From Candidatus Methylomirabilota bacterium (GTDB lineage Bacteria > Methylomirabilota > Methylomirabilia > Methylomirabilales > CSP1-5), in contig JAHFDE010000001.1 of the NCBI GenBank assembly GCA_023249165.1, forward strand, positions 5,243-37,918: a stretch of DNA of 32,676 nucleotides, given 5' to 3'. Position numbers and translations under genes: made by a program. The notes under the pieces were generated by a model. It worked only from the letters and a program-made list of their open reading frames with translations. It searched no databases and was not told where the DNA came from. Each line of letters begins with the position of its first letter. Position 1 is the first letter of the stretch. Positions 3,612 to 23,668 of the stretch are shown here, in pieces.

Positions 3612-3992
3612 TTACTCCGCAAGGGGATGACGAGATTGCTTCCTCTGGGCAAGCTGCCTCAGAATCTGCACATTGCCCGAAACGAGAGCTTTCTTCTTGG
3701 CATGCGTCCAGCCCTTGAGCTGGCGTTCACGCTTTAGAGCAGAGGCTTTGTCGGGATGTGGCTCAGAGTAGATGATCCGTCGGAAGCCAAATACTCGCGA
3801 AGTCCGGGTGCTGGGTTTTCCGCCAGCATGCTCGGTGGAGCGTCGCTTGAGATTATCCGTGACCCCGACGTACAACTGCCCATTCTTCAATTGAGCAATG
3901 TAGGTATAATAGCCCTTCGATCCAGAGTCTGTCAGGGTCAACGGAAGCCCTTCGACTCGCCTTGCTCGCTCAGGGCATTCGCCTCGCGCCAC
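3612..3992 (-). CDS. Small GIY-YIG (URI-domain) nuclease-family protein; start codon uncertain
   Basis: The sequence KGYYTYIAQLKNGQLYVGVTDNLKRRSTEH...RERQLKGW matches the GIY-YIG core. The N-terminal extension (ARGECPERARRVEG) is encoded by a locally repeated sequence. An internal TTG start is possible. Confidence 0.75.
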   Translation of the reverse strand: MARGECPERARRVEGLPLTLTDSGSKGYYTYIAQLKNGQLYVGVTDNLKRRSTEHAGGKPSTRTSRVFGFRRIIYSEPHPDKASALKRERQLKGWTHAKKKALVSGNVQILRQLAQRKQSRHPLAE

Positions 3993-4048
3993 GACGACCT
4001 GTCGAATGGCTTGCCATGAGCGAGAGCCACGGAGTGGCGCGAGTCGAA

Positions 4049-4124
4049 TGGCTCCCCGGGCAGGGCTCGAACCTGCAGCCTAGCGGTTAACAGCCGCTCG
4101 CTCCACCATTGAGCTACCGGGGAA
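4049..4124 (-). tRNA. tRNA-Asn (anticodon GTT), CCA encoded
   Basis: Hand-folded cloverleaf: acceptor TCCCCGG/CCGGGGA, anticodon arm AGCGG-CTGTTAA-CCGCT, T-arm GCAGGTTCGAGCCCTGC, 3' GCCA. Confidence 0.9.
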
Positions 4125-4138
4125 TCCTGGCAGTAATG

Positions 4139-4285
4139 CTAGCGCAAATCGGGACGAGCGTCAAAGCGCTTCCTCGTCCCGAACAGGCCGAAAGGGGAGG
4201 CGCTGTCCAGCTCAGCAATATGGACATAGTAGCCCTTCGACTCGGTCGCGCGCAAGACGACGCTCCCTCGCTCAGGGCATTCGCC
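4139..4285 (-). pseudogene. Truncated second copy of the GIY-YIG gene (N-terminal part only)
   Basis: The minus-strand frame reads ECPERGSVVLRATESKGYYVHIAELDSAS..., then diverges and stops at TAG (4139-4141). It shares 12-21-nt identical blocks with the 5' region of the intact copy. Confidence 0.5.
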
Positions 4286-4326
4286 TCACCCTAGCTCGCC
4301 ATGAGCGAGCGGAGCGAGTCGAATGG

Positions 4327-4914
4327 CTACGTCTTCTTCTGGAGTTCCTGCATGACGAGCTTGGCGATGGCCTTCAGCGTTTCGAAGACGCCGATTCCTT
4401 GGGGGGCGACCGCCTCGAACCAGGGGAGGTTGCGGGAATTGAGGGCCTTCTGCAGCTCATCGATGGGGACCGCGTTCTTGAGGTCTCGCTTGTTATATTG
4501 GATCACCAGCGAGATCTTGTCCGGGTCGATCCCCTGGTCCACCAGGTGCTGCTGCATATCGGCCAGGCTCTGGATGTTGGCCTCCATGCGTTCGAGCTGC
4601 GAGTCGGCAACAAAAACCACCCCGTCGGCCCCCTTCAGGATCAGCCTGCGACTGGCCTCATAGAAGATCTGGCCAGGAACCGTGTAGAGGTGGAAACGCG
4701 TCTTGAACCCTCGGATCGCCCCCAGTTCCAGCGGCAGGAAATCAAAGAAGAGCGTCCGCTCCGATTCCGTGGCCAGCGAGATGAGCTTGCCCTTCATCCC
4801 GGGGTCCACCTTCTTGTAAATGTGCTGCAGATTCGTGGTCTTGCCGCAGAGACCTGGGCCGTAGTAGACCAGTTTGCAGTTGATCTCCCGAGCCGCGTAG
4901 TTGATGAAGGACAT
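4327..4914 (-). CDS. mglA: Ras-like small GTPase MglA (mutual gliding-motility/polarity GTPase)
   Basis: This 195-aa ORF is nearly collinear with Myxococcus MglA as I recall it (MSFINY..REINCK.VYYGPGLCGKTTNLQ, TRFHLYTVPGQ, QYNKRDL). Confidence 0.9.
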   Translation of the reverse strand: MSFINYAAREINCKLVYYGPGLCGKTTNLQHIYKKVDPGMKGKLISLATESERTLFFDFLPLELGAIRGFKTRFHLYTVPGQIFYEASRRLILKGADGVVFVADSQLERMEANIQSLADMQQHLVDQGIDPDKISLVIQYNKRDLKNAVPIDELQKALNSRNLPWFEAVAPQGIGVFETLKAIAKLVMQELQKKT

Positions 4915-4917
4915 GCC

Positions 4918-5424
4918 TTAACCCTTGCCGAAGAGGTTTTCGACGTCGTCGTCGGTGATCTCGCCTATGTTGGGCTTCGCAAGAGGGTTCCCCTCCTCCG
5001 CGACCGGGTCCGGCCGCTTGGAGAGTTCAGTGAAAACCTCTTCGATCTCCCTGGAGAACTTCTTGACCTGGAGGCGGACCAGCGCCACGGCCGAGTTCTG
5101 ATCCAATAGCACCAGCAGGATGGCGCGGCCCCCGATGAGGGAGAGGTGGAGACGCTTCCGCTCCCCGTCGTAGAAGACAAAAGAAAATTCCTTCTCGCCC
5201 AGGAGCTGGGCTAACGCCCCCGCGGCGGCGACACTGCCCGCGGCGAGACTCGCGAGCGGCGTCGTATCAAGCGCGTCCGTCTCTCCGGCGCTGGCGATAA
5301 GCTGCCCGCTCGTGTCGATGAGGAGGACCGCCGCGCTCCGCGCCTTCCGCTGCAGGGAAGACAGGCAGGTGTTGATCCGGCTGAGGTCCTCTTCGTAGAT
5401 AACCAGATTGGTTATGGGGCGCAC
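4918..5424 (-). CDS. mglB: Roadblock/LC7-domain protein MglB (MglA GAP)
   Basis: This 168-aa ORF lies directly upstream of mglA with a 3-nt gap and has roadblock-like sequence (VIYEEDLSRINTCL...LLIDTSGQLIASAG). It starts with GTG. Confidence 0.8.
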   Translation of the reverse strand: MRPITNLVIYEEDLSRINTCLSSLQRKARSAAVLLIDTSGQLIASAGETDALDTTPLASLAAGSVAAAGALAQLLGEKEFSFVFYDGERKRLHLSLIGGRAILLVLLDQNSAVALVRLQVKKFSREIEEVFTELSKRPDPVAEEGNPLAKPNIGEITDDDVENLFGKG

Positions 5425-6090: not shown

Positions 6091-6402
6091 CTAGAAGAGT
6101 CCCGGCAGGTTGAGGCCGCCGGTCAGCCGTCCCATCTCGCTCGTGAGCAGGTCCCGGGACCGGCGCAAGGCCTCGTTGGTGGCAGCCACGATGAGATCCT
6201 GCAGCATCTCCAGGTCCCCGCCCTGAATCACCTCGGGGTCGATCCGGACCGCCACGATTTCCCCCCGACCGTCAGCCGTCACCGTCACCATCCCCCCGCC
6301 GGCCGAGCCCTCCACCCGCTGTGTGGCGGCCGCCTCCTGAATCCGCTCGAGCTCCGCCTTCATCCGCTGGGCCTGCTTCATGAGATCGCCAAATCCCTTC
6401 AT
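6091..6402 (-). CDS. ybaB: YbaB/EbfC-family nucleoid-associated protein
   Basis: This 103-aa ORF has the typical sequence (MKQAQRMKAELERIQEE...GGMVTVTADGRGEIVAVRIDPEV). Its ATG overlaps the dnaX stop (ATGA). Confidence 0.9.
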   Translation of the reverse strand: MKGFGDLMKQAQRMKAELERIQEAAATQRVEGSAGGGMVTVTADGRGEIVAVRIDPEVIQGGDLEMLQDLIVAATNEALRRSRDLLTSEMGRLTGGLNLPGLF

Positions 6403-8015
6403 GGCTCACCTTGGTGAGAGATGATCTCTCCTCCCTCCTCAACCTCGACGACCCGACCCCCAAACACCTCGAGCGCCTCTCGAACCAGGGGGTGGCTCCG
6501 AGCAGGCATCCGGGCCGGTTCCTCCCGTTTTCCCGCCGCCAAAGGGAGAAAGCGGTAGGCGACCTGGAGGCGTCTGCCGTAGACGGCAGAGATGGTCGAG
6601 GCAAGGAGGCTGCGGACCTCGGGGTCCTCCAGGGTGGAGCGAGCGAAATGATTTCCGTTGGCGAAGGTCAACGTCAAGGTCTCCCCCTCCAGCGTGACCT
6701 CGGCCTCGGCTAAGAGAACACCCAAGGAGCGCCGCTCCGAACCGATCCGCCGCCGCACCTCATGCCATCGGTCCTCAGGCCCGATGGCGGCCGGCGGCGG
6801 GCTAGGGGGGTCGGCTTTCTCCCGAGGCGTGAAAAGTTCAGCCTGTGGGGCAGGAGGCTCGGGGACGACCCCCAGGCGCCCCTCCAGGGACTCCAGGCGC
6901 TTGATCAGGCTTCCCAGGGACTCCAGCCCCCGAGCCTCGGCCATCCGGACCAGCGCCATCTCGAGGACATAGCGTGGTTGGGACGCCCGCCGCATCTCCC
7001 CCTCGGCATCCAAGAGAAATCGCAGCGCCAATTCCAGGTGGGGAATCTCCACGTGCGCCGCCCGCTGCTCGAGATCCCGCATGACCTCCGGAGCAAGCCC
7101 CAGGATCTCTCCTGCCTTGGGGCTGAGCTTCACAAGCAAGAGCGACCGGAGCTGCTCCAACAAGTCGAGGACAAAGGTGCGGAGATCTCCCCCTGTGGCG
7201 GCGAGCTCGCCGACAAGCTCCACGACCTTCCCCGGGTCCCCCGCCAAGCAGGCCCCCATCACCGCCCGGACCACCTCGGGCGCCGTCCATCCCAGGACGG
7301 CCCCCACCACATCGGCAGTCACCCGCTCGCCTCCATACGCGATCACCTGATCGAGGATGCTCTGGGCATCGCGCAGGCTCCCGTCGGCCGCCCGGGCGAG
7401 AGCGGCCAGGGCTTCCGGAGCCACGTCTACCCTTTCAGCCTCCGCAATCGCCCGAAGACGCTCCGTAAGCAGGCCCTGGCCAATGCGACGAAAGTCGTAG
7501 CGCTGGCAGCGGGAGTGGATCGTGGGGGGGACCTTGTGCGGTTCGGTCGTGGCGAGGATAAAAACCACCTTGGGCGGCGGCTCCTCCAGGGTCTTCAGGA
7601 GGGCATTGAAGGCCGAAAGAGAAAGCATATGGACTTCATCGATGATGTAGACCTTGGTGCGGCCTCTGACCGGCTGGTAGATCAACTGTTCCTGCAGATC
7701 CCGCACATGCTCGACACCGGTGTGCGAGGCGCCATCGATCTCTACGCAGTCCACGGCAGCGCCTGCCGTGATCTCGCGGCAGTTGAGGCACTGGTTACAC
7801 GGCTCAGGCGTTGGGCCACTGTCGCAGTTCAAGGCCTTGGCGAGGATCCGCGCAGTGGTGGTCTTACCGACCCCCCGAGGACCCGCGAAGAGAATGGCGT
7901 GAGCCACCCGGCCCTGCTGGAGCGCATTCTTGAGGGTCCGGGTGACCGCCTCCTGCCCCACGACTTCGTCGAAGGTCTGGGGGCGCCACCGCCTAGCTAG
8001 TACCTGATACGACAT
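6399..8015 (-). CDS. dnaX: DNA polymerase III subunit gamma/tau
   Basis: The ORF carries MSYQVLARRWRPQTFDEVVGQE, Walker A GPRGVGKTT and a zinc module CNQCLNC. I prefer the start at ATG 8015, because the upstream 12 codons of the tracked ORF are encoded by a heptamer repeat array. Confidence 0.95.
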   Translation of the reverse strand: MSYQVLARRWRPQTFDEVVGQEAVTRTLKNALQQGRVAHAILFAGPRGVGKTTTARILAKALNCDSGPTPEPCNQCLNCREITAGAAVDCVEIDGASHTGVEHVRDLQEQLIYQPVRGRTKVYIIDEVHMLSLSAFNALLKTLEEPPPKVVFILATTEPHKVPPTIHSRCQRYDFRRIGQGLLTERLRAIAEAERVDVAPEALAALARAADGSLRDAQSILDQVIAYGGERVTADVVGAVLGWTAPEVVRAVMGACLAGDPGKVVELVGELAATGGDLRTFVLDLLEQLRSLLLVKLSPKAGEILGLAPEVMRDLEQRAAHVEIPHLELALRFLLDAEGEMRRASQPRYVLEMALVRMAEARGLESLGSLIKRLESLEGRLGVVPEPPAPQAELFTPREKADPPSPPPAAIGPEDRWHEVRRRIGSERRSLGVLLAEAEVTLEGETLTLTFANGNHFARSTLEDPEVRSLLASTISAVYGRRLQVAYRFLPLAAGKREEPARMPARSHPLVREALEVFGGRVVEVEEGGEIISHQGEP

Positions 8016-8024
8016 AGATCTCTC

Positions 8025-8131
8025 GTTCGTGGTTGATGGTTCAGAGTTCATAGAGGAGCCGGAGCACGGTCACCTGCTCTGAACCATGAACGGCTCGGCT
8101 GAGCTCGCCGTAGCCTATGAACCCTGAACCG
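8025..8131. repeat. Tandem-oligomer inverted repeat, 7-nt unit GGTTCAN (left arm 4 copies; right arm 2+2 copies split by 21 nt)
   Basis: The left arm 8025-8053 reads GTTCGTG GTTGATG GTTCAGA GTTCATA. The right-arm pieces are 8077-8093 (ctctgaaccatgaacgg) and 8115-8131 (ctatgaaccctgaaccg). Confidence 0.8.
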
Positions 8132-8137
8132 AAAAAA

Positions 8138-8421
8138 GTCCTTGGCCGTGCACCCACCGTCGATCCCAACCGCCGGCTCTTACCCAGGACCGAAGGCTCC
8201 AGCCGGGCACCCCTGCGGCACAGGAGGCGGACCGCTTACCGCTGCTTCCTTCCGGACCTGACGGGGTTCACGGATCCCCCTTGCGCAGGACCCGACCCTC
8301 GACGCCCCAACCCCGGGCAGATCGCCCGGAGATCTAGGACCTCGGGCAGGAGTTCAATCCCGCTATAGCGGATTGCGGGTTCAGGGCACCGCTAGCTCCC
8401 CATCTAGCACGGCCAAGGACC
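8138..8421 (-). ncRNA. ffs: Signal recognition particle RNA, long (Bacillus-type, Alu-domain-containing) form
   Basis: The minus strand contains the domain IV motif GTCAGGTCCGGAAGGAAGCAGC. It also has a 5' region (GCCGTGCTAGATGGGGAGCTAGCGGTGCCCTGAACCCGCAATCCGC) close to B. subtilis scRNA as I recall it. A 14-bp terminal helix GTCCTTGGCCGTGC/GCACGGCCAAGGAC is followed by T6. The position upstream of dnaX-ybaB-recR is conserved. Confidence 0.85.
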
Positions 8422-8424
8422 CTT

Positions 8425-8522
8425 CAGAACAGGTATGAGCAATGAGCTATGAGGTTACAGCTTTGGCCTCTGGCTGGTCCCGCTCCGAACTCAGTCCTCA
8501 TCGCTCAGTACTCGATGCTGAC
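8425..8522. repeat. Tandem-oligomer inverted repeat, 7-nt unit (A/T)ATGAGC
   Basis: The left arm reads TATGAGC AATGAGC TATGAGG TTACAGC (about 8433-8461). The right arm reads GAACTCA GTCCTCA TCGCTCA GTACTCG (about 8487-8514). TGAG/CTCA recurs every 7 nt. Confidence 0.65.
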
Positions 8523-8524
8523 TA

Positions 8525-8614
8525 TGGCGGAGAGGCCGGGATTCGAACCCGGGGTGGGTGTCACCCCACACACGCTCTCCAGGCGTGCACCTTAAACCGC
8601 TCGGCCACCTCTCC
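8525..8614 (-). tRNA. tRNA-Ser (anticodon GGA), long variable arm, CCA encoded
   Basis: Hand fold: acceptor GGAGAGG/CCTCTCC, anticodon arm CACGC-CTGGAGA-GCGTG, T-arm CCGGGTTCGAATCCCGG. Confidence 0.9.
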
Positions 8615-8624
8615 GCGTGCACCC

Positions 8625-8717
8625 GTTCATGGTTCATAGATCATGGTTCATGGTATGGACCAGTGAGAATATGAGGCCCGCGTTCCGTCCATGAACCCTG
8701 AACCGTGAACTCTGAGC
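8625..8717. repeat. Tandem-oligomer inverted repeat, 7-nt unit GGTTCAT (4 + 4 copies)
   Basis: The left arm 8625-8653 reads GTTCATG GTTCATA GATCATG GTTCATG G. The right arm 8689-8717 reads CCATGAAC CCTGAAC CGTGAAC TCTGAGC. About 21 of 29 positions are complementary by hand alignment. Confidence 0.85.
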
Positions 8718-8724
8718 GATGTTG

Positions 8725-8820
8725 TGGCGGAGGGGGTGGGATTCGAACCCACGTGCCCCGCTCATCGCGGGACAACCCGATTTCGAGTCGGGCCCGTTAC
8801 ATCCACTTCGGTACCCCTCC
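8725..8820 (-). tRNA. tRNA-Ser (anticodon CGA), 96 nt with long variable arm, CCA encoded
   Basis: Hand fold: acceptor GGAGGGG/CCCCTCC, anticodon arm CCCGA-CTCGAAA-TCGGG, T-arm GTGGGTTCGAATCCCAC. Confidence 0.85.
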
Positions 8821-9328
8821 CGCTCGCCCATCCCAAGCCGCAGGAGTCGGGTGCCTGCCGCCGGGCCAGAAAGAATTCCTGCAGGAGGGCCTGAGACTCC
8901 TCCGCCCGCACACCACTCACCACCTTGACCCGATGATTGAGCCGCGGATCATCGAGGAGACGGTAGACGCTCTCGACGCCGCCTCCCCAGCGATCGGGGG
9001 CGCCGTACACGAGCCCTGCCACCCGCGCATGGAGCAAAGCCCCGGCGCACATCACACACGGTTCCAGGGTGACATATAGCGTGGCCTCGGGAAACCGATA
9101 GTTGCCGACCTGCCGCCCCGCTGCCCGGAGCACCAGGATCTCGGCATGCGCCGTCGGATCCTGGAGCGCGATGGGCTGATTATGCGCGGTAGCCAAGACG
9201 ACCCCATCCTGGATCAGGACAGCCCCCACCGGCACCTCTCCCGTCTCGCCCCCCCGGTGGGCCTCCTGAAGCGCCACATCCATCCACAAGAGATGCCCCT
9301 CGTGGGTTGTCTCTTTCGGCAACCCCAC
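8762..9328 (-). CDS. tadA: tRNA-specific adenosine deaminase TadA (A34 of tRNA-Arg(ACG)); the ORF's 3' 59 nt lie inside tRNA-Ser(CGA)
   Basis: The ORF has the CDA motifs HAEILVLR and LEPCVMCAGAL. The GTG at 9328 is preceded by AGGAGG at 6 nt. There is no in-frame stop before TGA at 8762-8764. Confidence 0.9.
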   Translation of the reverse strand: MGLPKETTHEGHLLWMDVALQEAHRGGETGEVPVGAVLIQDGVVLATAHNQPIALQDPTAHAEILVLRAAGRQVGNYRFPEATLYVTLEPCVMCAGALLHARVAGLVYGAPDRWGGGVESVYRLLDDPRLNHRVKVVSGVRAEESQALLQEFFLARRQAPDSCGLGWASGRGTEVDVTGPTRNRVVPR

Positions 9329-9396: not shown

Positions 9397-10374
9397 TTAC
9401 GCCTGCCCCTGGGAAAGCTGAGCCACCTTGGCCTTGAGTTCGTGGAGCAGGGTCCGGGCCTGGAGTTCGAGCCGCCGCTTCTCCAGCGCCCGTTTCACGG
9501 CATGGAGCATGACCTCGCTCTTGAACCCCTTGACGATAAAGTCAAAGGCCCCAAGCCTCAGGGCAGTGACGGCGTTGTGGGATGAGGGATGGCCGGTGAC
9601 CACGATCACCGGCGTGTCCGGCGTGAGGGTCTTCAATCGTTCGATGAGCTCGGGGCCCGACATGCCCGGGAGGACCAGATCCACCAAAATGACGTCGACC
9701 TCCTGGAACCGTAAGAGTTCGAGGGCCTGATGGGCCGTTGGCACCGTCAGGACCGTGTAGCCGTGGTCTCGGAGCAGGTCAGCGTAGATCGCCCGTTCGA
9801 GCAGCTCGTCCTCAACGATGAGGATCGTCGCCAAGGGGGGGCGCGACGGTGGGCCCTTGAGGAGATCGTGAGCGGCCCCCTCGGCATACCGGGCCGCCTC
9901 CAGCTCATGCAGGGAGCCGAGCGTCCGCTCGAGATCCCGGTGCAAGTGCCTGACCCTGAGGAGCGTCCGTACCCGCATGAGGAGCTCGCGCCGCTCGATG
10001 GGTTTGGTCAGAAAGTCATCGGCGCCCTCGTGAATCGCTTTTTCCCTCTCGGCCATCTGGTCCAGGCTCGTGACGATCACGACGGGAATGTCGCTGGTCT
10101 CCTTTCGCGCCTTGAGCTCCCGCAGCACCTCGCGGCCGCTCATGCCGGGCATGCCGAGGTCGAGGAGGACGATGTCGGGGCTCGCTCTCCTGACGGCACT
10201 GAGCGCCTGCTCTCCGCTCATGGCGGTCAGGACGTCGAGCCCCGCCCCCTTCAAGTAGGTCTCAAGGGTCCCGAGGGCTTTCGGGTCGTCATCCACCGCC
10301 AGGATCCTCCCCGGCGGCAGCCCCGCGGTTCCATCGCACATCAACGGCCTTTGGTCCTGCCTGCGAGCCTTCAT
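9397..10374 (-). CDS. Response regulator with two receiver (REC) domains and no recognisable output domain
   Basis: Two CheY-like units are present (ILAVDDDP...VLLDLGMPGMSG...TKP and ILIVEDE...ILVDLVLPGMSG), joined by a coiled linker. I chose the start at ATG 10374 (MKARRQ). The upstream part of the tracked ORF is not protein-like. Confidence 0.8.
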   Translation of the reverse strand: MKARRQDQRPLMCDGTAGLPPGRILAVDDDPKALGTLETYLKGAGLDVLTAMSGEQALSAVRRASPDIVLLDLGMPGMSGREVLRELKARKETSDIPVVIVTSLDQMAEREKAIHEGADDFLTKPIERRELLMRVRTLLRVRHLHRDLERTLGSLHELEAARYAEGAAHDLLKGPPSRPPLATILIVEDELLERAIYADLLRDHGYTVLTVPTAHQALELLRFQEVDVILVDLVLPGMSGPELIERLKTLTPDTPVIVVTGHPSSHNAVTALRLGAFDFIVKGFKSEVMLHAVKRALEKRRLELQARTLLHELKAKVAQLSQGQA

Positions 10375-10477
10375 CGAGACACCATCCCCGCCCCGTTTTT
10401 TGCACTTTCTATGCCAACGCTGTACCCCCTTCTCATGACGATTCAGCCCTGCCCAAGGACCCGTCGAGTTATTTTTC

Positions 10478-10506
10478 TTGACACCGCGTGGGATCGCTTG
10501 TACGGT
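10478..10506 (+). promoter_or_regulatory. Sigma70-type promoter TTGACA-17-TACGGT with A/T-rich UP-like tract upstream
   Basis: The sequence gttatttttcTTGACAccgcgtgggatcgcttgTACGGTcat lies about 280 nt upstream of rpsU. Confidence 0.5.
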
Positions 10507-12546: not shown

Positions 12547-13821
12547 GTGGTCCGTGTGTGGCCGCGATACGAAGGCCTACTCCGTGGCGTTTGCGGATGG
12601 TCGCGTCGGTCCTGCCCTCTTGACAGCGCCCGTGGCCCTGGCGATACCCAATCAATCCCAACGCTCAGACATACCGTAAACCGCGCAATCGGCAGGTTCT
12701 ACCAGGTGAGAGATCCCGCTTCCTTCGCTGGCCTGATCATTCGCGAAAAGGATCCGGAAAATCTGGAATTTCCCTTCTCCTCGCTCAACAGCTTCGTCAC
12801 ACCTAACGAGCAGTTCTTTATCCGCTCCCATTTCGCCGTACCGAAACTGAATCCCCGCAGCTGGCGGCTTAAGATCGAAGGTCTCGTCGATCGCCCTTGC
12901 CAAATCGATTACAACGACTTGCTGAGGTTGCCGTCCCGCTCGGTGACGACGACGCTCGAATGTGCGGGTAACAGCCGTATTTTTTTGACGCCCAAAGTGG
13001 GCGGTTTGCAGTGGGGCTTGGGCGCGGTGGGCAACGCGGAATGGACGGGTGTCCCCCTCGCAGCCGTGCTGGAGCGCGCCGGGGTGCACGCCGGAACAGT
13101 CGAGGTGGTGCTGCAAGGAGGGGATGCGGGCGAGATCAAGAAGGAACCGCAATCGCCCGGAAAGATTCATTATGCCCGAAGCCTCCCGCTGGAGAAGGCC
13201 TTGCGATCAGAGGTGATCTTGGCCTACCAGATGAACGGCGCACAGCTTCCCATGTCTCATGGCTTCCCTGTGCGGGCTGTCGTGCCCGGCTGGTATGGAA
13301 TGGCGTCGGTCAAATGGCTCACCCGTATCGTCGTCACTGATCGTGTTTTTCGCGGTTACTTCCAGACATCGGACTATGCATACTGGGACCAGCCCGAGGG
13401 GTTGCCAATCCAATTGTTGCCCGTGGCCGAAGTAGAGGTCAAAGCCCAGATTGCACGTCCCGCCCTGCACGAAGTCGTGCGCGCAAATTCGGTTTATCGG
13501 ATGCATGGCGCCGCGTGGGCCGGAGAATCGGAAGTGACCAAGGTGGAGGTGAGCACGAATGGAGGCCGCATGTGGAAGCCGGCAGAGTTCCTCGGTGCTG
13601 CTTCCAGGTATGCCTGGCGCTTGTGGGAATACACCTGGCACACACCGTCGCGCGTAGGACGCTATACGGTGATGGCGCGGGCGAGCGACGCTCGTGGGCG
13701 CGTGCAACCAATGCACCGCGACCCGCATCGTGGAACGTACATGATCAGTCACGTTCAACCCATCGAGGTCGAAGTCCAAGAATCGGCTCCGCCGCCGCCC
13801 ACGGACCGCTACACCATCTGA
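12547..13821 (+). CDS. Sulfite-oxidase-family molybdopterin oxidoreductase with C-terminal Moco-dimerisation-type domain; start uncertain (GTG 12547 or GTG 12706)
   Basis: The molybdenum-ligand cysteine context TLECAGNSR is conserved, along with FFIRSHF and the GFPVRAVVPGWYG.ASVKW motif. There is no in-frame ATG near the 5' end, and I see no obvious Tat or Sec signal. Confidence 0.8.
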   Translation: MVRVWPRYEGLLRGVCGWSRRSCPLDSARGPGDTQSIPTLRHTVNRAIGRFYQVRDPASFAGLIIREKDPENLEFPFSSLNSFVTPNEQFFIRSHFAVPKLNPRSWRLKIEGLVDRPCQIDYNDLLRLPSRSVTTTLECAGNSRIFLTPKVGGLQWGLGAVGNAEWTGVPLAAVLERAGVHAGTVEVVLQGGDAGEIKKEPQSPGKIHYARSLPLEKALRSEVILAYQMNGAQLPMSHGFPVRAVVPGWYGMASVKWLTRIVVTDRVFRGYFQTSDYAYWDQPEGLPIQLLPVAEVEVKAQIARPALHEVVRANSVYRMHGAAWAGESEVTKVEVSTNGGRMWKPAEFLGAASRYAWRLWEYTWHTPSRVGRYTVMARASDARGRVQPMHRDPHRGTYMISHVQPIEVEVQESAPPPPTDRYTI

Positions 13822-13881
13822 ACCTCTCAGCAACGGGGGAGGTGCCGGACGAGGTCAAGGAGTAGACCAGCTAGGTGATTG

Positions 13882-13958
13882 TGGCGCGCCCAAGAGGATT
13901 CGAACCTCTGACCTACGGATTCGTAGTCCGTCGCTCTATCCAGCTGAGCTATGGGCGC
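13882..13958 (-). tRNA. tRNA-Arg (anticodon ACG), CCA encoded
   Basis: Hand fold: acceptor GCGCCCA/TGGGCGC, anticodon arm ACGGA-CTACGAA-TCCGT, T-arm AGAGGTTCGAATCCTCT. Confidence 0.9.
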
Positions 13959-13965
13959 GTCTCAA

Positions 13966-14060
13966 TGCTGGAATGCTAGAACGCTAGGAGGCTAGAAAGC
14001 TTAAACCCAATGCTTCTCTCCCCGGGCATTCCAGCGTCCCAGCCTTCCAGCTTTCTAGCA
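13966..14060. repeat. Tandem-oligomer inverted repeat, 8-nt unit (T/C/G)GCTAGAA (4 + 4 copies)
   Basis: The left arm 13966-14000 reads TGCTGGAA TGCTAGAA CGCTAGGA GGCTAGAA AGC. The right arm 14026-14060 reads GC ATTCCAGC GTCCCAGC CTTCCAGC TTTCTAGC A. Confidence 0.8.
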
Positions 14061-14068
14061 ATAAGACA

Positions 14069-14163
14069 TGGCGGAGAGGCCGGGATTCGAACCCGGGGTA
14101 GGGCTCAACACCCTACAACCGCTTAGCAGGCGGCTGCCTTCAGCCTGGCTCGGCCACCTCTCC
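14069..14163 (-). tRNA. tRNA-Ser (anticodon GCT), long variable arm, CCA encoded
   Basis: Hand fold: acceptor GGAGAGG/CCTCTCC, anticodon arm GCCGC-CTGCTAA-GCGGT. The T-arm and acceptor are identical to those of tRNA-Ser(GGA). Confidence 0.9.
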
Positions 14164-14172
14164 ACACGATGG

Positions 14173-14273
14173 GGTTCATGGTTCATGGATCGTGGTTCAT
14201 GGCTTACGGTCCAAGACCAGAATGTAAGGTCCCGCTCCCGACTATGAACCGTGAACCATGAACTCTGAACTCC
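14173..14273. repeat. Tandem-oligomer inverted repeat, 7-nt unit GGTTCAT (4 + 4 copies); close paralogue of 8625-8717
   Basis: The left arm 14173-14202 reads GGTTCAT GGTTCAT GGATCGT GGTTCAT GG. The right arm 14242-14273 reads CTATGAAC CGTGAAC CATGAAC TCTGAAC TCC. Confidence 0.85.
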
Positions 14274-14295
14274 GATTCCGGCAAGCGGAGTCGGA

Positions 14296-14382
14296 TGGCG
14301 GAGGGGGTAGGATTCGAACCCACGAGGCTCTTCGCCTAACGGTTTTCAAGACCGCCGCCTTCAGCCACTCGGCCACCCCTCC
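14296..14382 (-). tRNA. tRNA-Ser (anticodon TGA), CCA encoded
   Basis: Hand fold: acceptor GGAGGGG/CCCCTCC, anticodon arm GCGGT-CTTGAAA-ACCGT, T-arm GTGGGTTCGAATCCTAC. Confidence 0.9.
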
Positions 14383-14386
14383 GTTT

Positions 14387-14486
14387 GGTTCATGGTTCAG
14401 AGTTGAGGGTTCGGGGTCTAAACCGCATACGGCCTAAGTATACGACGTCCCTGCCCAAATTACCATGAACTATGAATCGCGAACGG
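14387..14486. repeat. Tandem-oligomer inverted repeat, 7-nt unit GGTTCAN (4 + 3 copies, more degenerate)
   Basis: The left arm 14387-14416 reads GGTTCAT GGTTCAG AGTTGAG GGTTCGG GG. The right arm 14463-14486 reads CCATGAAC TATGAAT CGCGAAC GG. Confidence 0.7.
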
Positions 14487-14513
14487 CGATCCCGTTGTGC
14501 GGGATCGTGGCAG

Positions 14514-15803
14514 TCACGCTGGAGGCTCGATTTTCGTGAGGCCGCCCATGTACGGCCGGAGAACTTCGGGGATGGTGACGGTACCGTCGGCCTCCTGGTA
14601 GTTCTCGAGGATGGCGGCCCAGGTCCGACCGATGGCGATGCCGGAGCCATTCAGGGTGTGCACGAATTCTGCCTTCGCCCCCGGGTGAGCGCGGTAGCGA
14701 ATGGCGGCCCGCCGTGCCTGAAAGTCCTCGAAGTTACTGCAGGAAGAGACCTCCCGGTAGACCTGCTGGCTCGCAAACCACACCTCGAGATCGTAGGTCT
14801 TGGCGGCGGCAAAGCCCAGGTCGCCCGTGCAAAGCACCACCACTCGGTAGGGGAGATGAAGCCGCTTCAAGACCTCTTCGGCTTCAGTAGTGAGCTGCTC
14901 TAGCGCCTGATAGGACGTCGCCGACTCGGTGAACTTCACCAGCTCGACTTTGTTGAACTGGTGCTGGCGGATGATCCCCCGCGTATCCTTCCCGTACGAG
15001 CCCGCCTCCCGCCGGAAGCAGGGCGTGTACGCCACGTAACTCAGCGGTAATGTCCCGGGCTCCAGTATCTCCTCCCGGTGGATATTGGTGACCGGGACCT
15101 CCGCCGTGGGAATGAGAAAATACGGATCGTCTGCCGTCTTGAAGAGCTCGTGGGCGAACTTGGGGAGCTGCCCGGTGCCCGTCATACTGTCTTCGCTGAC
15201 CAAGAGAGGTGGGAACACCTCGGTGTAGCCGTGCTCCCGCACGTGCAGGTCGAGCATGAAATTGATCAGGGCCCGCTCGAGGAGCGCCCCTTTCCCTTTC
15301 AGAAGCGGAAAGCGGGCGCCGGCCAGTCGCGCGGCCCGGGCGAGATCCAGGATCCCCAGGTCCTCCCCGATCTCCCAGTGGGGTCGTGGCTCACCATCGA
15401 AGGACCGCGGTGCGCCCCAGCGGCGGACCTCGACATTCTCTTCCGGGCTGCGTCCAACGGGGACGGAAGGGTGAGGGAGGTTCGGGATCAGGAGCAGAAG
15501 GCTACCCAGTTCCTGTTCGACGGCCTGAAGTCGGTCTTCGCTCTCCTTCAGCGCACTGGAAATTTCCCGGCTTCTCGTCACCAGGGCTGTCGCCACATCC
15601 GCGGGCTTCTCGCCCACCCTGGTCTCCTGCACCTGTCGAGAGAGCGCCTTCTTTTCTCGCCGCCATTGCTCAACGTCAACCACCAGCCGCCGCCGTTCGG
15701 CGTCGAGTTTCAGCAGCTTCTCTAAGTCAAATTCTGCTCCCCGCTGCCCAAGCTTCTCCCGGATGAGACCGGCATTTTCCCGAATGAACTTGAGGTCCAG
15801 CAT
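14514..15803 (-). CDS. serS: Seryl-tRNA synthetase
   Basis: The ORF has the N-terminal coiled-coil arm [18 protein letters not shown] and class II motifs ([16 protein letters not shown]). The ATG at 15803 lies 10 nt after the gyrA stop. The upstream 23 codons of the tracked ORF overlap the gyrA tail region. Confidence 0.95.
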
Positions 15804-15813
15804 CGCCCGGCCC

Positions 15814-18357
15814 TTACTCCTCTTCGGGCTCGTCCCCTTCGACAAGCTCAGGGGGGCCTTCGGCCGGCTCAAGGGTGCCCTCGACAGGTTCAGGCCCGGC
15901 CTCCGCGACCTCGTCCTCCTCCATCACGACAGCGGTCACCGCGGCCACGCGGTCCCCCTCCTCCAGGCCCTGGAGCCGCACCCCCTGTGCATCCCGGCCC
16001 GTATCGCGGATCTCCCGGACCCGAAGGCGGGTCACCTTCCCCTCCTGGGAGATCATCATCACCCCGTCCTCCTCCCGGACCTGTTTGATCCCCACGACCG
16101 GGCCGTTCTTGTCGGTCACCCGAATATTGATGATCCCCTTGCCACCGCGCCCCTGGACCCGGTACTCGGAGACATCGGTCCGCTTCCCGAACCCTCGCTC
16201 GCAGACCGTCAGCATCTGGGCGCCCTCAGAGACGATCTCCATCCCGACCACCTGATCTTGCGACTCCAGGCGAATCCCCGTGACCCCTCGCGCTGACCGT
16301 CCCGTGGGCCGGACATCGTCTTCCTTGAACCGGATCGCCATCCCATTTCGGGTCCCCAGGAAGACGTCCTCGGTGCCGCGTGTCATGGCGACCCCGATCA
16401 ACTCATCCCCCTCATCGAGCGAGAGTGCAATGATCCCCCCCGCCCGCGGATTGGCATAGGCGCTGAGCTCCGTCTTCTTCACCACCCCCCGCCTGGTCGC
16501 CATCACCAGATACCGGTCGACCTCAAATTGGCGGATGGGGATCATCGTGGTCACGTGCTCCCCGGACTGCAGCTCGAGGAAGTTGGCATTGGACTTCCCC
16601 CGCGCCGCCCGGCCGAGCTGGGGAATCTCATGAACCTTCAGCCAGTGCACCCGCCCCAGATTAGTAAACAAGAGGATGTAGCTATGGGTCGTAGCCACAA
16701 AGAGGTGCTCGACGTAGTCCTCCTCCTTGGGGGCCATGCCCGTCGTCCCCTTGCCGCCCCGCCGCTGTGCGCGGTAGACGCTGAGCGGACTGCGCTTGAT
16801 ATATCCGCCGTGAGTGACGGTGATCACCATCTCTTCGTCAGCCACCATGTCTTCAAGGCTGATCTCGGTCGTCTCCTCTTCGATCTGGGTCCGGCGCGGA
16901 TCACCGTAGGCCTCCTTGAGCCCCAGCAGCTCCTCCTTGATGATCTGGCGCACCAGCCCCTCACTCTGCAAGATGGCCTGCAGCCGCGCGATGGTCTGCA
17001 GTGTCTCCTGATATTCGTCCTGAATCTTCTGCCGCTCGAGCGCCGTCAGTCGCTGGAGTCGGAGGTCCAGGATGGCCTGGGCCTGGATCGGCGTCATGGT
17101 GAAACGCTGCACCAAACCCGTCCTGGCGTCCTCCACCGCTCGCGAGCGGCGGATGAGGGCGATGACCTCGTCAAGATGGTCCAGGGCGATCCGGTAGCCC
17201 TCCAGGATATGAGCCCGCTCCTCTGCCTTTCGCAGGTCGAAGCGGGTCCGGCGCACCACCACCATGCGCCGATGATCGATGAAGTATTGCAGCTGCTGCT
17301 TCAGCGTGCAGACCTTCGGCTGGTTTTCGACCAGACCCAGCATGATGACGCCGAAGGTGGACTGCATGGGGGTGTGTTTGTAGAGCTGATTCAGGATCGG
17401 CCGGGGCGTCTCGTCCCTCTTCAGCTCCAGGACGATCCGCATCCCTTCCCGATCCGACTCGTCGCGGAGATCGGCGATGCCCTGCACCCTCCCGTCCCGG
17501 ATCAGCTCGGCGATCCGCTCGATGAGCTTCGCCTTGTTGACCTGGTAGGGGAGCTCTGCAATGATGATGCTCTCGCGACCTCCTCGCCCCTTCTCCACGA
17601 AGGCCTTGGCCCGCAACTGGATCAGGCCCCGTCCGGTCCGGTAAGCCTCCTCAATCCCACCACGCCCGTGGATGAAGGCGGCCGTGGGGAAGTCGGGACC
17701 GGGGAGGACCGCCATCAGCTCTTTGAGGGAGACGTCCGGGTTCTCCAGCTGCAGGATCACCGCATTCACCACCTCTCCCAGGTTATGGGGCGGGATGTTG
17801 GTGGCCATGCCGACGGCGATCCCCGACGAGCCGTTCACGAGAAGGTTGGGGAGGGCGGCCGGCAAGAGCGCCGGCTCCTGAAGGGTGTCATCGAAATTGG
17901 GGACGAAGTCGACCGTCTCCTTGTCGATGTCTCGAAGCAGCTCCTGGGCGATCCGGGCTAACCTGACCTCGGTGTAGCGCATCGCGGCGGGCGCATCGCC
18001 ATCGACAGACCCGAAGTTCCCCTGCCCGTCGATCAGGGGGTAGCGCATCGAGAAATCCTGGACGAGACGGACAATGGTGTCGTAGACGGCCGCATCGCCG
18101 TGCGGATGATACTTCCCCAGGACCTCTCCCACCACCCGGGCCGCCTTCTTGTAGGGGCGATTGAAGGCGAGTCCCAGCTCTTGCATGGCATAGAGCACCC
18201 GGCGGTGCACCGGTTTCAGCCCGTCCCGGACATCGGGCAGGGCCCGCCCGATGATGACGCTCATGGCGTAGTCCAGGTACGACCGCCGCATCTCCTCGTG
18301 GATGTCGGTGGGTCTTACCTCGCCGATCCGCGGCTCTTCGGTCCGATCCTCTGGCAC
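15814..18357 (-). CDS. gyrA: DNA gyrase subunit A
   Basis: This 847-aa ORF carries [31 protein letters not shown], the active-site region AAMRYTE, C-terminal beta-pinwheel repeats and an acidic tail. It starts with GTG. Confidence 0.97.
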
Positions 18358-18446
18358 GCCTTCGCCTTCCTAGTACCGACCTAACCCTTCGAACTTCCCA
18401 GGGCTGGTACTGAGTGGGCAAAATGCAAACGCATTTCACCATGTGA

Positions 18447-18523
18447 CAATTGAACAATAGAACAGTAGACCGCAATGGAGCCTTTTTTCAGGATCAGTCT
18501 ATTGTTCCAATGCTCCATTGCTC
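18447..18523. repeat. Tandem-oligomer inverted repeat, 8-nt unit GA(A/G)CAAT(N), in the A/T-rich gyrB-gyrA spacer
   Basis: The left arm reads TGAACAAT AGAACAGT AGACCGCA ATGGAGC. The reverse complement of the right arm reads GAGCAATG GAGCATTG GAACAATA GACTG. Two blocks are complementary: gaacaataga/tctattgttc and gcaatggagc/gctccattgc. Confidence 0.6.
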
Positions 18524-18524
18524 T

Positions 18525-18551
18525 AAAGTAAACGCGCTTCGTGCGTTTACT

Positions 18552-18553
<2 letters not shown>
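18525..18553 (-). other. Perfect 11-12-bp hairpin (AAAGTAAACGC / GCGTTTACTTT) overlapping the gyrB stop codon
   Basis: The sequence is taaagtaaacgcgcttcgtgcgtttacttta. The gyrB TAA lies at 18552-18554. No U-run follows on the minus strand. Confidence 0.6.
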
Positions 18554-22197
<3,644 letters not shown>

Positions 22198-22247
22198 CAC
22201 CTTCCTCCCCGCTTCACTCCCATTATGAGTTCATGGTTCTCTTAATC

Positions 22248-22253
22248 ATTATA
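22248..22253 (-). promoter_or_regulatory. Perfect TATAAT -10 hexamer (minus strand) upstream of dnaN; -35 weak
   Basis: The minus strand reads ctcttgTATAATgattaag, about 50 nt upstream of the dnaN start. Confidence 0.4.
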
Positions 22254-22829
22254 CAAGAGCGATCTCTCTATAACCTATAGAGATAATATCTTAAGTCGTA
22301 GAGGATAGGAGGCCTTGTGGAAATACGGAAAGCATCGAAAGTGAATAGGTCTGCCTTGGGACAGAGAATGGAATGCCATGGGGATTAAACGGGAAAACAC
22401 GTCGAATTCCTCCCCTCTCCCCACCTCCCCACATCTTTTCCATTGAGGTTCCCTGACTTATCAACTCCTCGCGGCGGGCGCCCGATCTTCCTCACTTCAC
22501 GAGGGCAACATCTCGTGAAGCCGCTCCACTTCTGGCCTGATTCGTTTCCACACGGGCCAAGCCGCAGCAGGCGTGCGTTTATTCTCTCGACCCCCCTTCA
22601 GAGCTCTTAGGACAAGGCTTTGAGTTACTCACAAGATTGTCCACATGTGTGGAAAACCCATAAAGTCCTTTAAATTCAAATAGTTGGGTTCCATATCAAG
22701 AACGGATGTACGATCGGACCCCGGGATTTTTGGCAAGGCCGGGGGTGCAACTTCGCACAGTTCTTATAGCACGCGGGCCCCACAATTACAACTACTTTTT
22801 GCCCTCCACCGGGCCGGTGTGGATTGAAA

Positions 22830-22858
22830 TTGACAAGTGAATCGCAGAGGACTACGAT
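22830..22858 (+). promoter_or_regulatory. Sigma70-type promoter TTGACA-17-TACGAT for the rpmH-rnpA-yidD-yidC operon
   Basis: The sequence attgaaaTTGACAagtgaatcgcagaggacTACGATtagg lies about 45 nt upstream of the rpmH GTG. Confidence 0.55.
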
Positions 22859-22902
22859 TAGGCGCTTTAGCGGAGTGGCGTTACTCGGAGAGGGCGTGAG
22901 GA

Positions 22903-23040
22903 GTGAAGCGCACCTATCAACCGAGCCGCATTAAGCGAAAACGCACCCACGGATTTCGCCAGCGGATGAGGAGCAAGGGGGGCCAGCGAGTCTTGGCCCG
23001 CCGGCGGGCCAAGGGGAGAAAGCGGCTGGCAGTGACGTAG
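22903..23040 (+). CDS. rpmH: 50S ribosomal protein L34
   Basis: Hand translation from GTG 22903 gives (M)[44 protein letters not shown]. At 45 aa it is below the ORF-track size cutoff. GGAGAGGG lies upstream. Confidence 0.95.
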
Positions 23041-23439
23041 GTGGGGCATCGGTTTTCGAGGGCGGACCGTATTCGCGCCACGAAGGAGTTTCGGGAAGTC
23101 ATCCGCGGCGGCGAAAAGGTCTCTGGCCGAGGCGTCAGCGTCTTTGTGTACCGTCGTGACCGCCCTGGACAGAGGTTGGGGCTCGCCGTCGCTTCGCGCC
23201 TCAGTGGCGCGGTCGCTCGGAATCGCATCAAACGGCGGCTGCGGGAGTACGTTCGCCTGAACCGGGCCAAGATGGCGGACGGACTCGACCTGGTCGTGGT
23301 GGTGCATCGAGATCTCTCTGGCGGCGACGCCGAGACCTTCCGGGAGATTGTTGCGGACCTGTTCAGACGGGCCGGGCTCCTTCGTGACCTCCCTCCTCAC
23401 TATGCGGAAGAATCGGCACGCCCATCCAGGTCTCGCTAG
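23041..23439 (+). CDS. rnpA: Ribonuclease P protein component
   Basis: This 132-aa ORF has the RNR-motif region [13 protein letters not shown] and follows rpmH directly (TAG then GTG). Confidence 0.9.
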
Positions 23440-23641
23440 CCTTGGCCTAAAGGCGATCGCGCTGTATCGGCGGTTTCTCTCCCCACTCTTCCCCCCCGCC
23501 TGCCGGTTTGTCCCCACGTGCTCGGCCTACGCCGAGGAAGCAATTCGCAGGTACGGGCTGGTTCAAGGAATCATCCTATCCGTTCGGCGGTTGCTCAGAT
23601 GTCATCCCCTTCACCCCGGGGGAATTGATCCGGTGCGCTGA
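23402..23641 (+). CDS. yidD: Membrane protein insertion efficiency factor YidD
   Basis: The conserved YidD core is [33 protein letters not shown]. The ATG at 23402 overlaps the rnpA 3' end. Confidence 0.9.
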
Positions 23642-23668
23642 GGGAAGGCGGGTACGCGGGAGGCAGCC

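Follow-up and report, generated by a model that had tools for sequence, protein, structure and literature searches.

Some bacteria are known for an over-representation of heptamer repeats. The GGGAATC heptamer arrays of Xanthomonas include 70-75 convergent pairs that are able to form stem-loops (Rehm et al. 2015, PMC4692102). In the 5' untranslated region (UTR) of Haemophilus influenzae hmw, an (ATCTTTC)n array makes up one arm of a long hairpin that is cleaved by RNase III, and changes in its repeat number depend on transcription and on the RNA hairpin (PMC12721329). The TAACTGA repeats of Beggiatoaceae are direct arrays, with one inverted set among the 170 in the genome (PMC4679880). Correia elements of Neisseria bind RNase III, by which they are cleaved or protected, and can create promoters (PMC2649163). 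Repetitive extragenic palindromic (REP) elements are well established as able to stabilise upstream mRNA (PMC3116915), and intergenic stem-loops are reported to determine the stoichiometry of transcripts in operons subject to selective RNA processing and stabilisation (PMC4423207). Here we describe hairpins in which both arms are tandem arrays of a short unit, found in a 32,676-nt stretch of DNA that belongs to an uncultured bacterium of the order Methylomirabilales (phylum NC10); the stretch at its full length is called the window, and positions are counted from its first letter.

The three spacers between tRNA-Ser(CGA), tRNA-Ser(GGA), the signal recognition particle (SRP) RNA gene and dnaX hold hairpins with tandem-repeat arms that belong to a lineage-specific family. 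In the layout of the family, some 3-5 copies of a unit of 7 or 8 nt make up the 5' arm, a loop of 18-70 nt follows, and the 3' arm consists of the reverse-complement unit. An earlier note on this DNA had described inverted tandem-unit arms in these spacers, built from two types of unit and flanked by co-oriented genes. All of this was borne out: the units are GTTCA-type and ATGAGC/ACTGAGG, and every gene around the three spacers lies on the minus strand. The loops of 23-35 nt given in that note were too short, as the gaps between the arms measure 30-61 nt.

Seven hairpins in the window

The window holds seven such hairpins (H1 to H7, all on the minus strand), whose arms repeat a unit of 7 or 8 nt and its reverse complement. 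The spacers of two stable-RNA clusters are filled by six of them, and the seventh occupies the gyrB/gyrA spacer; all seven sit between genes of the same strand. H1, in the SRP RNA/dnaX spacer (8031-8130), is of the GTTCA type and ends 9 nt before the GAGAG-ATG start of dnaX. Where two arrays had been proposed it has three, and the two 5' arrays in transcript sense (8115-8130 and 8077-8091) vie for a single 3' array (8031-8053). The inverted arms at 8038-8053 and 8115-8130 are 94% complementary over 16 nt, and the alternative partner at 8077-8091 reaches 93% over 15 nt. H2, in the tRNA-Ser(GGA)/SRP RNA spacer (8430-8520), has ATGAGC/ACTGAGG units and is a degenerate copy; its inverted arms (8437-8454 and 8496-8513) are 83% complementary over 18 nt. 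H3, in the tRNA-Ser(CGA)/tRNA-Ser(GGA) spacer (8624-8718), is made of GGTTCAN units, with arms at 8624-8653 and 8689-8718 that are 77% complementary over 30 nt and stand 35 nt apart. Its apical loop, GGGCC...CATATTC...GGTCC, is similar to the loops of other GTTCA-type copies.

In the second cluster, H4 occupies the entire tRNA-Ser(GCT)/tRNA-Arg(ACG) spacer (13964-14060) with the 8-nt unit GCTGGAAN, arranged as 7-bp helices with single mismatches between them. H5, in the tRNA-Ser(TGA)/tRNA-Ser(GCT) spacer (14171-14273), again consists of GGTTCAN units and has a loop similar to that of H3, and H6, between serS and tRNA-Ser(TGA) (14387-14485), is a degenerate GTTCA-type copy. The intercistronic hairpin H7 of gyrB/gyrA (18444-18526) uses another 8-nt unit, ACAATAGA.

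Folding of the sense-strand RNA gave z-scores of -2.1 to -6.6 in six of the seven spacers. The SRP RNA/dnaX spacer folds at -49.9 kcal/mol (z -3.6), the spacer of H3 at -35.5 kcal/mol (z -2.3), H4 at -53.9 kcal/mol (z -5.7) and the whole spacer of H5 at -55.8 kcal/mol (z -4.9); H6 has a z-score of -2.1, and the value of -6.6 belongs to 18430-18560, which covers H7 and a small hairpin beside it. Tandem Repeats Finder reported period-7 arrays in the arms of the spacers of the first cluster, as well as arrays with an inverted partner 27-38 nt away (8625/8692, 13964/14029, 14173/14241 and 18446/18501). The double unit GTTCANRGTTCA occurs 11 times in the window, where 0.01 copies are expected, and all copies lie in stable-RNA spacers. 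A detector for a tandem 5-mer paired with its inverted copy found three clusters in the window, compared with 0.06 per shuffle.

The arms are complementary per unit and not per position. Averaged over 19 elements, complementarity is 73% in the alternative in-phase registers, about equal to that in the best register, and 19% in out-of-phase registers, in agreement with the multi-register pairing that had been anticipated. Because the variable positions of the unit often mispair, internal loops recur periodically. The predicted sense-strand stems comprise 25-35 pairs with periodic mismatches of 1-2 nt, and are thus predicted to reach the length expected of an RNase III processing stem, for which a transcript should be mostly double-stranded over some 20 bp or more.

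Each of the seven unit types of the clade (from the window and loci L001-L003, L206 and L208) contains a stop triplet on one strand. With a period of 7 or 8, three units set a stop in every frame, and the inverted arm does likewise on the other strand. This observation was made post hoc, and the AT-richness of the units alone may explain it, the chance per unit being 0.33 at the GC content of the genome and about 0.6 at 40% GC, which is near the composition of the units themselves.

We also note smaller stem-loops, all on the minus strand, beside three of the hairpins. A perfect GC-rich one (14488-14506) directly follows the serS stop codon upstream of H6, another (14271-14295) directly follows the 3' end of tRNA-Ser(TGA) upstream of H5, and a perfect 14-bp stem-loop (18527-18559) adjoins the gyrB stop codon upstream of H7. 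Similar small stem-loops are present in the related loci L002 (9210-9232 and 9470-9489) and L003 (5275-5291 and 5489-5511). A small perfect GC-rich stem-loop after the upstream gene, lacking a T-run, together with a large hairpin thus forms a recurring two-hairpin module.

The first cluster reads, in transcript order, tadA-like deaminase gene, tRNA-Ser(CGA) (8725-8821), tRNA-Ser(GGA) (8525-8614), large SRP RNA (8146-8412; bacterial large type, Rfam RF01854, 199 bits), dnaX, ybaB and recR, all on the minus strand. The first protein gene downstream of the cluster is dnaX (6399-8015, with its ATG at 8015), which encodes the gamma/tau subunit of DNA polymerase III. A run of six U residues (8132-8137, minus strand), terminator-like by eye from the sequence, directly follows the closing helix of the SRP RNA. 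The second cluster (13882-14382, minus strand) has the order serS, tRNA-Ser(TGA) (14296-14382), tRNA-Ser(GCT) (14069-14163) and tRNA-Arg(ACG) (13882-13958). The two tRNA-Ser pairs of the window look like duplicates of one another.

Relatives, other phyla and phages

Orthologous loci were collected via DnaX homologues. The closest DnaX relatives of the window are metagenome proteins, 92-97% identical, and the named relatives belong to metagenome-assembled genomes of Methylomirabilales or NC10; an exact look-up of the window DnaX with either start codon returned no identical record. Locus L001, with a DnaX 97% identical to that of the window, has a background DNA identity of 97%. Its Ser(GGA)/SRP RNA spacer is 78% identical to the window, and its SRP RNA/dnaX spacer, 56-72% identical, carries a different unit. 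The units of the latter spacer are GGTTCAG in the window, GATGACC in L001 and GGTTCAT in L002, and those of the Ser(GGA)/SRP RNA spacer are ACTGAGG or GTTCA, depending on the relative. L002 (DnaX 81%) has GTTCA units in all three spacers, including one arm of eight units, and L208 (DnaX 77%) has a GTTCA hairpin in the Ser/Ser spacer and other arrays in the remaining ones. In the more distant L206 (DnaX 59%) five GTTCA hairpins are found, one of them within copA.

The H3 spacer behaves differently. It is 98% identical between the window and L003, against a background of about 80% and 84-91% for the SRP RNA itself, and L002, L208 and L206 have diverged versions of it. The high identity could equally be the result of purifying selection or of recombination anchored in the identical flanking tRNA genes. 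Comparison of filled (window, L001 and L002) and empty (L003) SRP RNA/dnaX sites revealed no visible target-site duplication. Copy-number differences between near-identical assemblies were not seen.

Enrichment next to stable-RNA genes, a check proposed in the earlier note, was assessed in the called genes of five clade loci with two conservative automatic detectors. Hairpins were detected in 15 of the 32 gaps adjoining a tRNA or SRP RNA gene, compared with 1 of the 46 other gaps, each 60 nt or longer (Fisher p = 1.5e-6, a value that overstates independence because the loci are partly orthologous). About 30 of the other gaps come from non-overlapping flanks that are independent of the window, and all of these are empty. 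Nevertheless, a tie to stable-RNA spacers alone is too narrow, since hairpins of this type also lie between gyrB and gyrA, in frame in copA, between atpA and atpG, and in phage gene arrays.

The occurrence outside the clade was followed in a control set of 1.14 Mb of dnaX loci from a DnaX scan of a genome collection; the matches listed are from other phyla, at 35-51% identity. These loci were matched on universally conserved DnaX peptide patterns and were not selected for hairpins. The same architecture is present in contigs of Nitrospira, Deltaproteobacteria, Verrucomicrobia, Anaerolineae and Acidobacteria, where the hairpins have unrelated units, are concentrated in few genomes, and again flank SRP RNA, tRNA-Ser and dnaX. 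Thus, a Nitrospira contig (L020) has CTGAGTT and TGAATGA units, a Nitrospiraceae contig (L019) has AAGCTGAC, a groundwater deltaproteobacterium (L008) has AATTAAA and AGTTAGG, and a contig of Verrucomicrobia (L067) also carries hairpins. Hairpin-rich genomes of other phyla have them in further intergenic gaps too. Among the Firmicutes loci of this set, no hairpin was detected.

Scans with a pattern of three successive GTTCA units retrieved at least 120 stretches from each of two collections, one of metagenomes and one of viruses; because the pattern itself was GTTCA, these numbers do not speak to the abundance of this unit relative to others. Clear hairpins occur in contigs of 40-66% GC, one of them between atpA and atpG and one between two tRNA genes. 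Classes of flank orientation based on open reading frames (ORFs) were too noisy for the metagenome matches and were set aside. Three viral contigs, L251, L269 and L241, have GTTCA hairpins filling many of the gaps that separate co-directional genes. The loops of these hairpins share the consensus GTTGGGGAAAGAGGAGGTTTTTAAC, and in 13 of 14 copies it is the purine-rich strand that is sense, an orientation bias that speaks for a role linked with transcription or with the transcript itself. The fold z-scores of copies in other phyla and phages range from -3.7 to -6.1. A BLAST search of a hairpin-rich phage locus against cultured phage records gave no match. In the phage contigs, arrays of (GCATAGA)n or (GCAGAGA)n, together with their complements, supply outer inverted arms that enclose or adjoin the GTTCA hairpins (L251 2760-3040 and 6040-6170; L269 3200-3480; L241 2290-2360), giving nested palindromes.

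The flanks of tRNA-Asn in the window have a different palindromic repeat instead of the tandem-armed hairpin. This REP-like or miniature-transposable-element-like palindrome of about 110 nt is present twice around the gene (3894-4056 and 4214-4330), with the termini AGCCCTTCGACTCG ... CGAGTCGAATGGCT, and one of the two copies overlaps with the tRNA 3' end. A similar palindrome (CATTCGACTCGC ... GCGAGTCGAATGGCG) follows tRNA-Ser in the Nitrospiraceae contig L019 (9490-9570), so this type, too, is common to several phyla.

Some further features of the locus deserve mention. Directly 3' of dnaX-ybaB-recR lies a gene pair for a Roadblock/LC7 protein and a small Arf/Ras-like GTPase (MglB/MglA-like; 4327-5424), which is kept in the Methylomirabilota loci L002, L003, L206, L207 and L208; L209 has the GTPase gene alone. 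The gap between the divergent genes dnaN (minus strand) and yidC (plus strand), at 22200-23669, has a lower GC content of 0.53 and coincides with the minimum of the cumulative GC skew, and two adjacent DnaA-box-like 9-mers are situated in it at 22637-22656. This gap (22.2-23.6 kb) is probably the chromosomal replication origin. No dnaA gene neighbours dnaN, and no Pfam family matches the ORF at 22867-23517. Where the 3' end of gyrA meets the start of serS, a 21-nt tandem repeat of 2.8 copies, CCTTCGACAGGCTCAGGGGGG (15836-15894), probably codes for a repeat in the C-terminal tail of GyrA, because its period is a multiple of three.

Possible roles and origins

Our preferred reading, held tentatively, is that the hairpins are transcribed and separate neighbouring RNAs, as RNase III-type processing sites or as exonuclease barriers, and that their arms are kept by slippage or fold-back conversion. 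They are probably transcribed within long precursors because they lie inside the co-directional strings tadA-tRNA-Ser-tRNA-Ser-SRP RNA-dnaX, serS-tRNA-Ser-tRNA-Ser-tRNA-Arg and gyrB-gyrA. The long precursor put forward in the earlier note is made plausible by L003, in which about 20 nt separate the end of the SRP RNA from the start codon of dnaX; as this leaves no room for a promoter, dnaX must be read there from a transcript through the SRP RNA gene. Each spacer would fold on its own into an imperfect duplex of 25-35 bp between the neighbouring RNAs, which would keep it from mispairing with the flanking tRNA or SRP RNA. The duplex could offer a double-stranded cut site of the RNase III type or a barrier to exonucleases, and each neighbouring RNA might thereby mature and decay independently. 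Analogies for such a role are the hmw 5'-UTR hairpin of H. influenzae, the Correia elements of Neisseria, the RNase III sites of phage T7 and the stem-loops of selective RNA processing and stabilisation operons. The arms are probably kept alike by slippage or fold-back conversion and not by point compensation, because they match per unit; upkeep of this kind would explain the multi-register pairing, the periodic mismatches and the fast turnover. In favour of the preferred reading we count the stable folds, the position, the architecture that outlasts the sequence, the co-transcription in L003, the recurrence in other phyla, the loop orientation in phages and the RNase III precedents.

Several observations weigh against it. 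The sense transcripts of two spacers of the first cluster fold well, but the third does not: the spacer of H2 folds at -34.4 kcal/mol with a z-score of -0.35, no better than shuffles. Its orthologues fold far more strongly (-49.5 kcal/mol in L001 and -45.0 kcal/mol in L003), so the copy in the window is taken to be decayed. When sense and antisense folding were compared as a test of selection at the RNA level, the sign was inconsistent and no steady advantage of the sense strand emerged. GTTCA-type stems are mostly more stable as antisense RNA (by 1 to 10 kcal/mol) because their mismatches are C·A on the sense strand; for stems of other units the sense RNA is the more stable one, and there are 90 G-U pairs in sense against 74 in antisense. 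Covariation between the arms, which the earlier note had suggested looking for, gave no position-specific signal across orthologous spacers; with orthologues either near-identical or replaced, and in-phase registers equally good, no such signal is obtainable. The hairpin is also dispensable: its turnover is fast, it is absent between SRP RNA and dnaX in L003 (DnaX 77%; 9960-10003), and the orthologous spacers of L207 and L209 (DnaX 50-52%; Methylomirabilis-like, L209 being labelled Candidatus Methylomirabilis sp.) have none. Finally, a role in separating RNAs makes no sense for the copy in L206 at 10429-10502, a hairpin of GTTCA heptamers in frame in copA, the gene of a copper-transporting P-type ATPase. 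It adds about 25 residues that are absent from solved CopA homologues, and the unit that would give an in-frame TGA reads TCA.

The same observations bear on the other explanations. That the hairpins are chance low-complexity sequence or an assembly artefact is refuted. The poor fold of H2 is what such a reading could point to, but the excess of the double unit over expectation and of detector clusters over shuffles and z-scores down to -6.6 overcome it, as do the same elements in independent ENA, JGI and NCBI assemblies, with near-identical copies in those of ENA and JGI. The main rival reading, possible though on the whole rather unlikely, is that the hairpins are non-adaptive or selfish palindromic repeats at the DNA level, produced by slipped-strand mispairing with fold-back template switching or by some process of mobilisation, spread by recombination between similar tRNA-Ser genes, and persisting where the harm they do is slight, perhaps aided by the heavy transcription of stable RNA. 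The copA copy with its TCA, the two spacers that have diverged from L001 far beyond the background, the presence of hairpins in some relatives and their absence in others, the patchy occurrence across phyla with few hairpin-rich genomes, the unit-level complementarity with no privileged register, and the wobble pairs with no strand bias all fit such an origin. The change in copy number of the hmw repeat, which needs transcription and the RNA hairpin (PMC12721329), would supply a reason for enrichment at highly transcribed loci. Yet ordinary gaps of the clade are equally non-coding and just 1 of 46 has a hairpin, the loops of the phage copies are consistently oriented, and phage genomes are compact and nevertheless have hairpins in many gaps. 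In a miniature transposable element of recent spread, every copy would have a conserved loop; here this is not so, and no target-site duplication was found between filled and empty sites. The identity of H3 between the window and L003 also speaks against selfish spread, although recombination at identical tRNA genes could explain it as well.

An improbable alternative is that terminator and promoter are combined in one module, in which the hairpin ends or protects the upstream RNA and each downstream stable-RNA gene gets its own promoter; the last GTTCAnn unit of the 5' arm (TTCACA, TTGACA or TTCATG) would be the -35 box and an AT-rich hexamer of the loop the -10 box. In a subset of GTTCA copies the loop does hold a purine tract and then, at a distance of 15-17 nt from the last 5' unit, a hexamer (CATATT, TACATT, CATACT, TACATC, TTTAAT or TTCATT); in the copies examined, the transcribed strand is the one that bears the hexamer. 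Some units are exactly TTGACA. The hairpin-free Ser(TGA)/Ser(GCT) spacer of L207 has TTGACA and TATAT, and Correia elements provide a precedent for a hairpin repeat that creates promoters (PMC2649163). The geometry resembles -35 and -10 boxes weakly, and the constant spacing may merely reflect common descent of the copies. The hexamer is missing from H2, H4 and H7, which have other units, many GTTCA hairpins elsewhere have loops of 0-20 nt that are too short for a promoter, and L003 has no space for a dnaX promoter. A consensus scan found no sigma-70-type promoter in either stable-RNA cluster, and a scan for GC-rich stems with a T-run found 0 terminator sites in 7950-8900 and 13800-14560, where the sole T-run is the one after the closing helix of the SRP RNA (8132-8137); the canonical terminator role considered in the earlier note is thereby not supported. 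Similarly improbable, in our view, is a binding-site array, in which the GTTCA core, recurring every 7 nt, would be recognised on DNA or RNA by a sequence-specific factor; this might be a regulatory or nucleoid protein, an enzyme resembling a transposase, or a protein that binds single strands with a footprint of 7 nt, and the hairpin potential would be secondary. The core is present in four of the seven window hairpins, in all those detected in L206 and in all three of L002, it is kept while two other positions of the unit vary and often mispair, and it recurs in the metagenome and viral stretches. However, those scans were made with the GTTCA pattern, and the same genomes and spacers also use the unrelated units GCTGGAAN, ACAATAGA, ACTGAGG and GATGACC. 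A simple array has no need of the inverted two-array layout, which is constant, and the 7-bp period does not match the helical repeat of DNA.

A more speculative idea, unlikely as it stands, is that the hairpins constitute a distinct, self-renewing class of intergenic elements in several phyla and phages. Their arms would be renewed by fold-back synthesis or slippage in shifted registers, such that structure is kept without covariation, the GTTCA type would be read by a dedicated factor or act as a promoter/terminator module, and the elements could colonise new sites, including ORFs in frame.

If the hairpins separate the RNAs of one transcript, as in the reading we prefer, they would show how an uncultured phylum and some phages divide stable-RNA and mRNA precursors, with a spacer structure conserved via unit-level repeat dynamics and not via base-by-base covariation. 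RNA discovery based on covariation misses elements conserved at the level of units by design. If they are non-adaptive, they would show slippage and fold-back copying building long quasi-palindromes at highly transcribed loci, even within genes. Either way, they are divergence hot spots and possible sites of misassembly beside the marker loci of tRNA, SRP RNA and dnaX, and could be mistaken for ORFs, microRNA-like hairpins or CRISPR-like repeats.

Comparison with described repeats

Several classes of element were considered as candidates. Identity with REP elements or REP doublets forming hairpins (REPINs) is excluded by arms that are tandem 7-8-nt units of several unrelated sequences, and no transposase family was found among the ten window ORFs scanned. 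A CRISPR array, in which direct repeats of 23-47 nt alternate with unique spacers of about the same length, is excluded by abutting units of 7-8 nt in two inverted arrays. Iterons, which are direct repeats of about 17-22 bp that an initiator protein binds at a replication origin, are excluded by the period of 7-8 nt, the inverted layout and the location inside stable-RNA and gyrBA transcription units, with the likely origin elsewhere (22.2-23.6 kb). With respect to miniature inverted-repeat transposable elements, which have terminal inverted repeats, a target-site duplication and copies that match along their full length, some loops are alike (H3, H5, L206 and L208) and others unrelated; the in-frame copy in copA does indicate insertion. 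No Rfam family reached its gathering score on the hairpins, and permissive scans gave only sub-threshold hits, nearly all of them over tRNA genes.

REP elements, bacterial interspersed mosaic elements (BIMEs) and REPINs resemble the NC10 hairpins as abundant intergenic imperfect palindromes that often lie between co-transcribed genes. They differ as single palindromes of 20-40 nt with a GTAG-type head and a REP-associated tyrosine transposase (RAYT), whereas the NC10 arms are tandem arrays with no REP doublets. Rickettsia palindromic elements are dispersed copies of 100-150 bp with conserved sequence, which can sit in frame in coding genes. The in-frame position is shared by the GTTCA hairpin of L206 copA, and the difference is that the Rickettsia elements do not have arms built of short tandem units. 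In Correia elements, the terminal inverted repeats are fixed and 26 bp long, the core is conserved and includes a site for integration host factor (IHF), and there are target-site duplications. The NC10 hairpins, in contrast, have arms of tandem short units, variable loops and no target duplication that could be seen. The two are alike in being short intergenic inverted repeats, co-transcribed with their neighbours (probably so for the NC10 hairpins) and present or absent between strains (PMC2649163). The short tandemly repeated repetitive (STRR) sequences of cyanobacteria and the Beggiatoaceae repeats share with the hairpins intergenic tandem heptamers, enrichment in lineages, a patchy distribution across phyla and stop triplets in the units, but are direct arrays that lack the two-arm hairpin layout (PMC4679880).

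The earlier note knew of no described class with this construction. That view stands with regard to REP, CRISPR and iterons, which differ by unit and layout, and is qualified by the precedents of the Xanthomonas pairs (PMC4692102) and the hmw hairpin (PMC12721329). Like the hairpins, which are convergent pairs of approximately 7-nt arrays in non-coding DNA, the Xanthomonas arrays are intergenic tandem heptamers with two opposite-strand arrays close by and a possible stem-loop; they lie mostly between co-oriented genes, are transcribed, and vary in length among related species while the repeat type is kept (PMC4692102). They consist of a single G-rich unit, studied as a G-quadruplex former, with no link to tRNA or SRP RNA reported (PMC4692102). 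The NC10 hairpins have many unrelated units that are not G-rich, with periods of 7 and 8, and are concentrated in stable-RNA spacers; no runs of three or more G are found in GGTTCAT, ATGAGC, GCTGGAAN or ACAATAGA. The hmw hairpin is similar in having a heptamer-repeat arm in a transcribed leader, as H1 has in the leader of dnaX. It is a single phase-variable locus in which the left arm only is a repeat and the right arm a G-rich stretch, as opposed to the NC10 hairpins, in which both arms are arrays. No description of these elements in NC10 or Nitrospira, nor of a link to tRNA-Ser, SRP RNA and dnaX spacers, was found in the literature. Inverted short tandem arrays and repeat-armed hairpins are thus known already, and what has not been described is a family of many units that is tied to stable-RNA genes and shared across phyla and phages.

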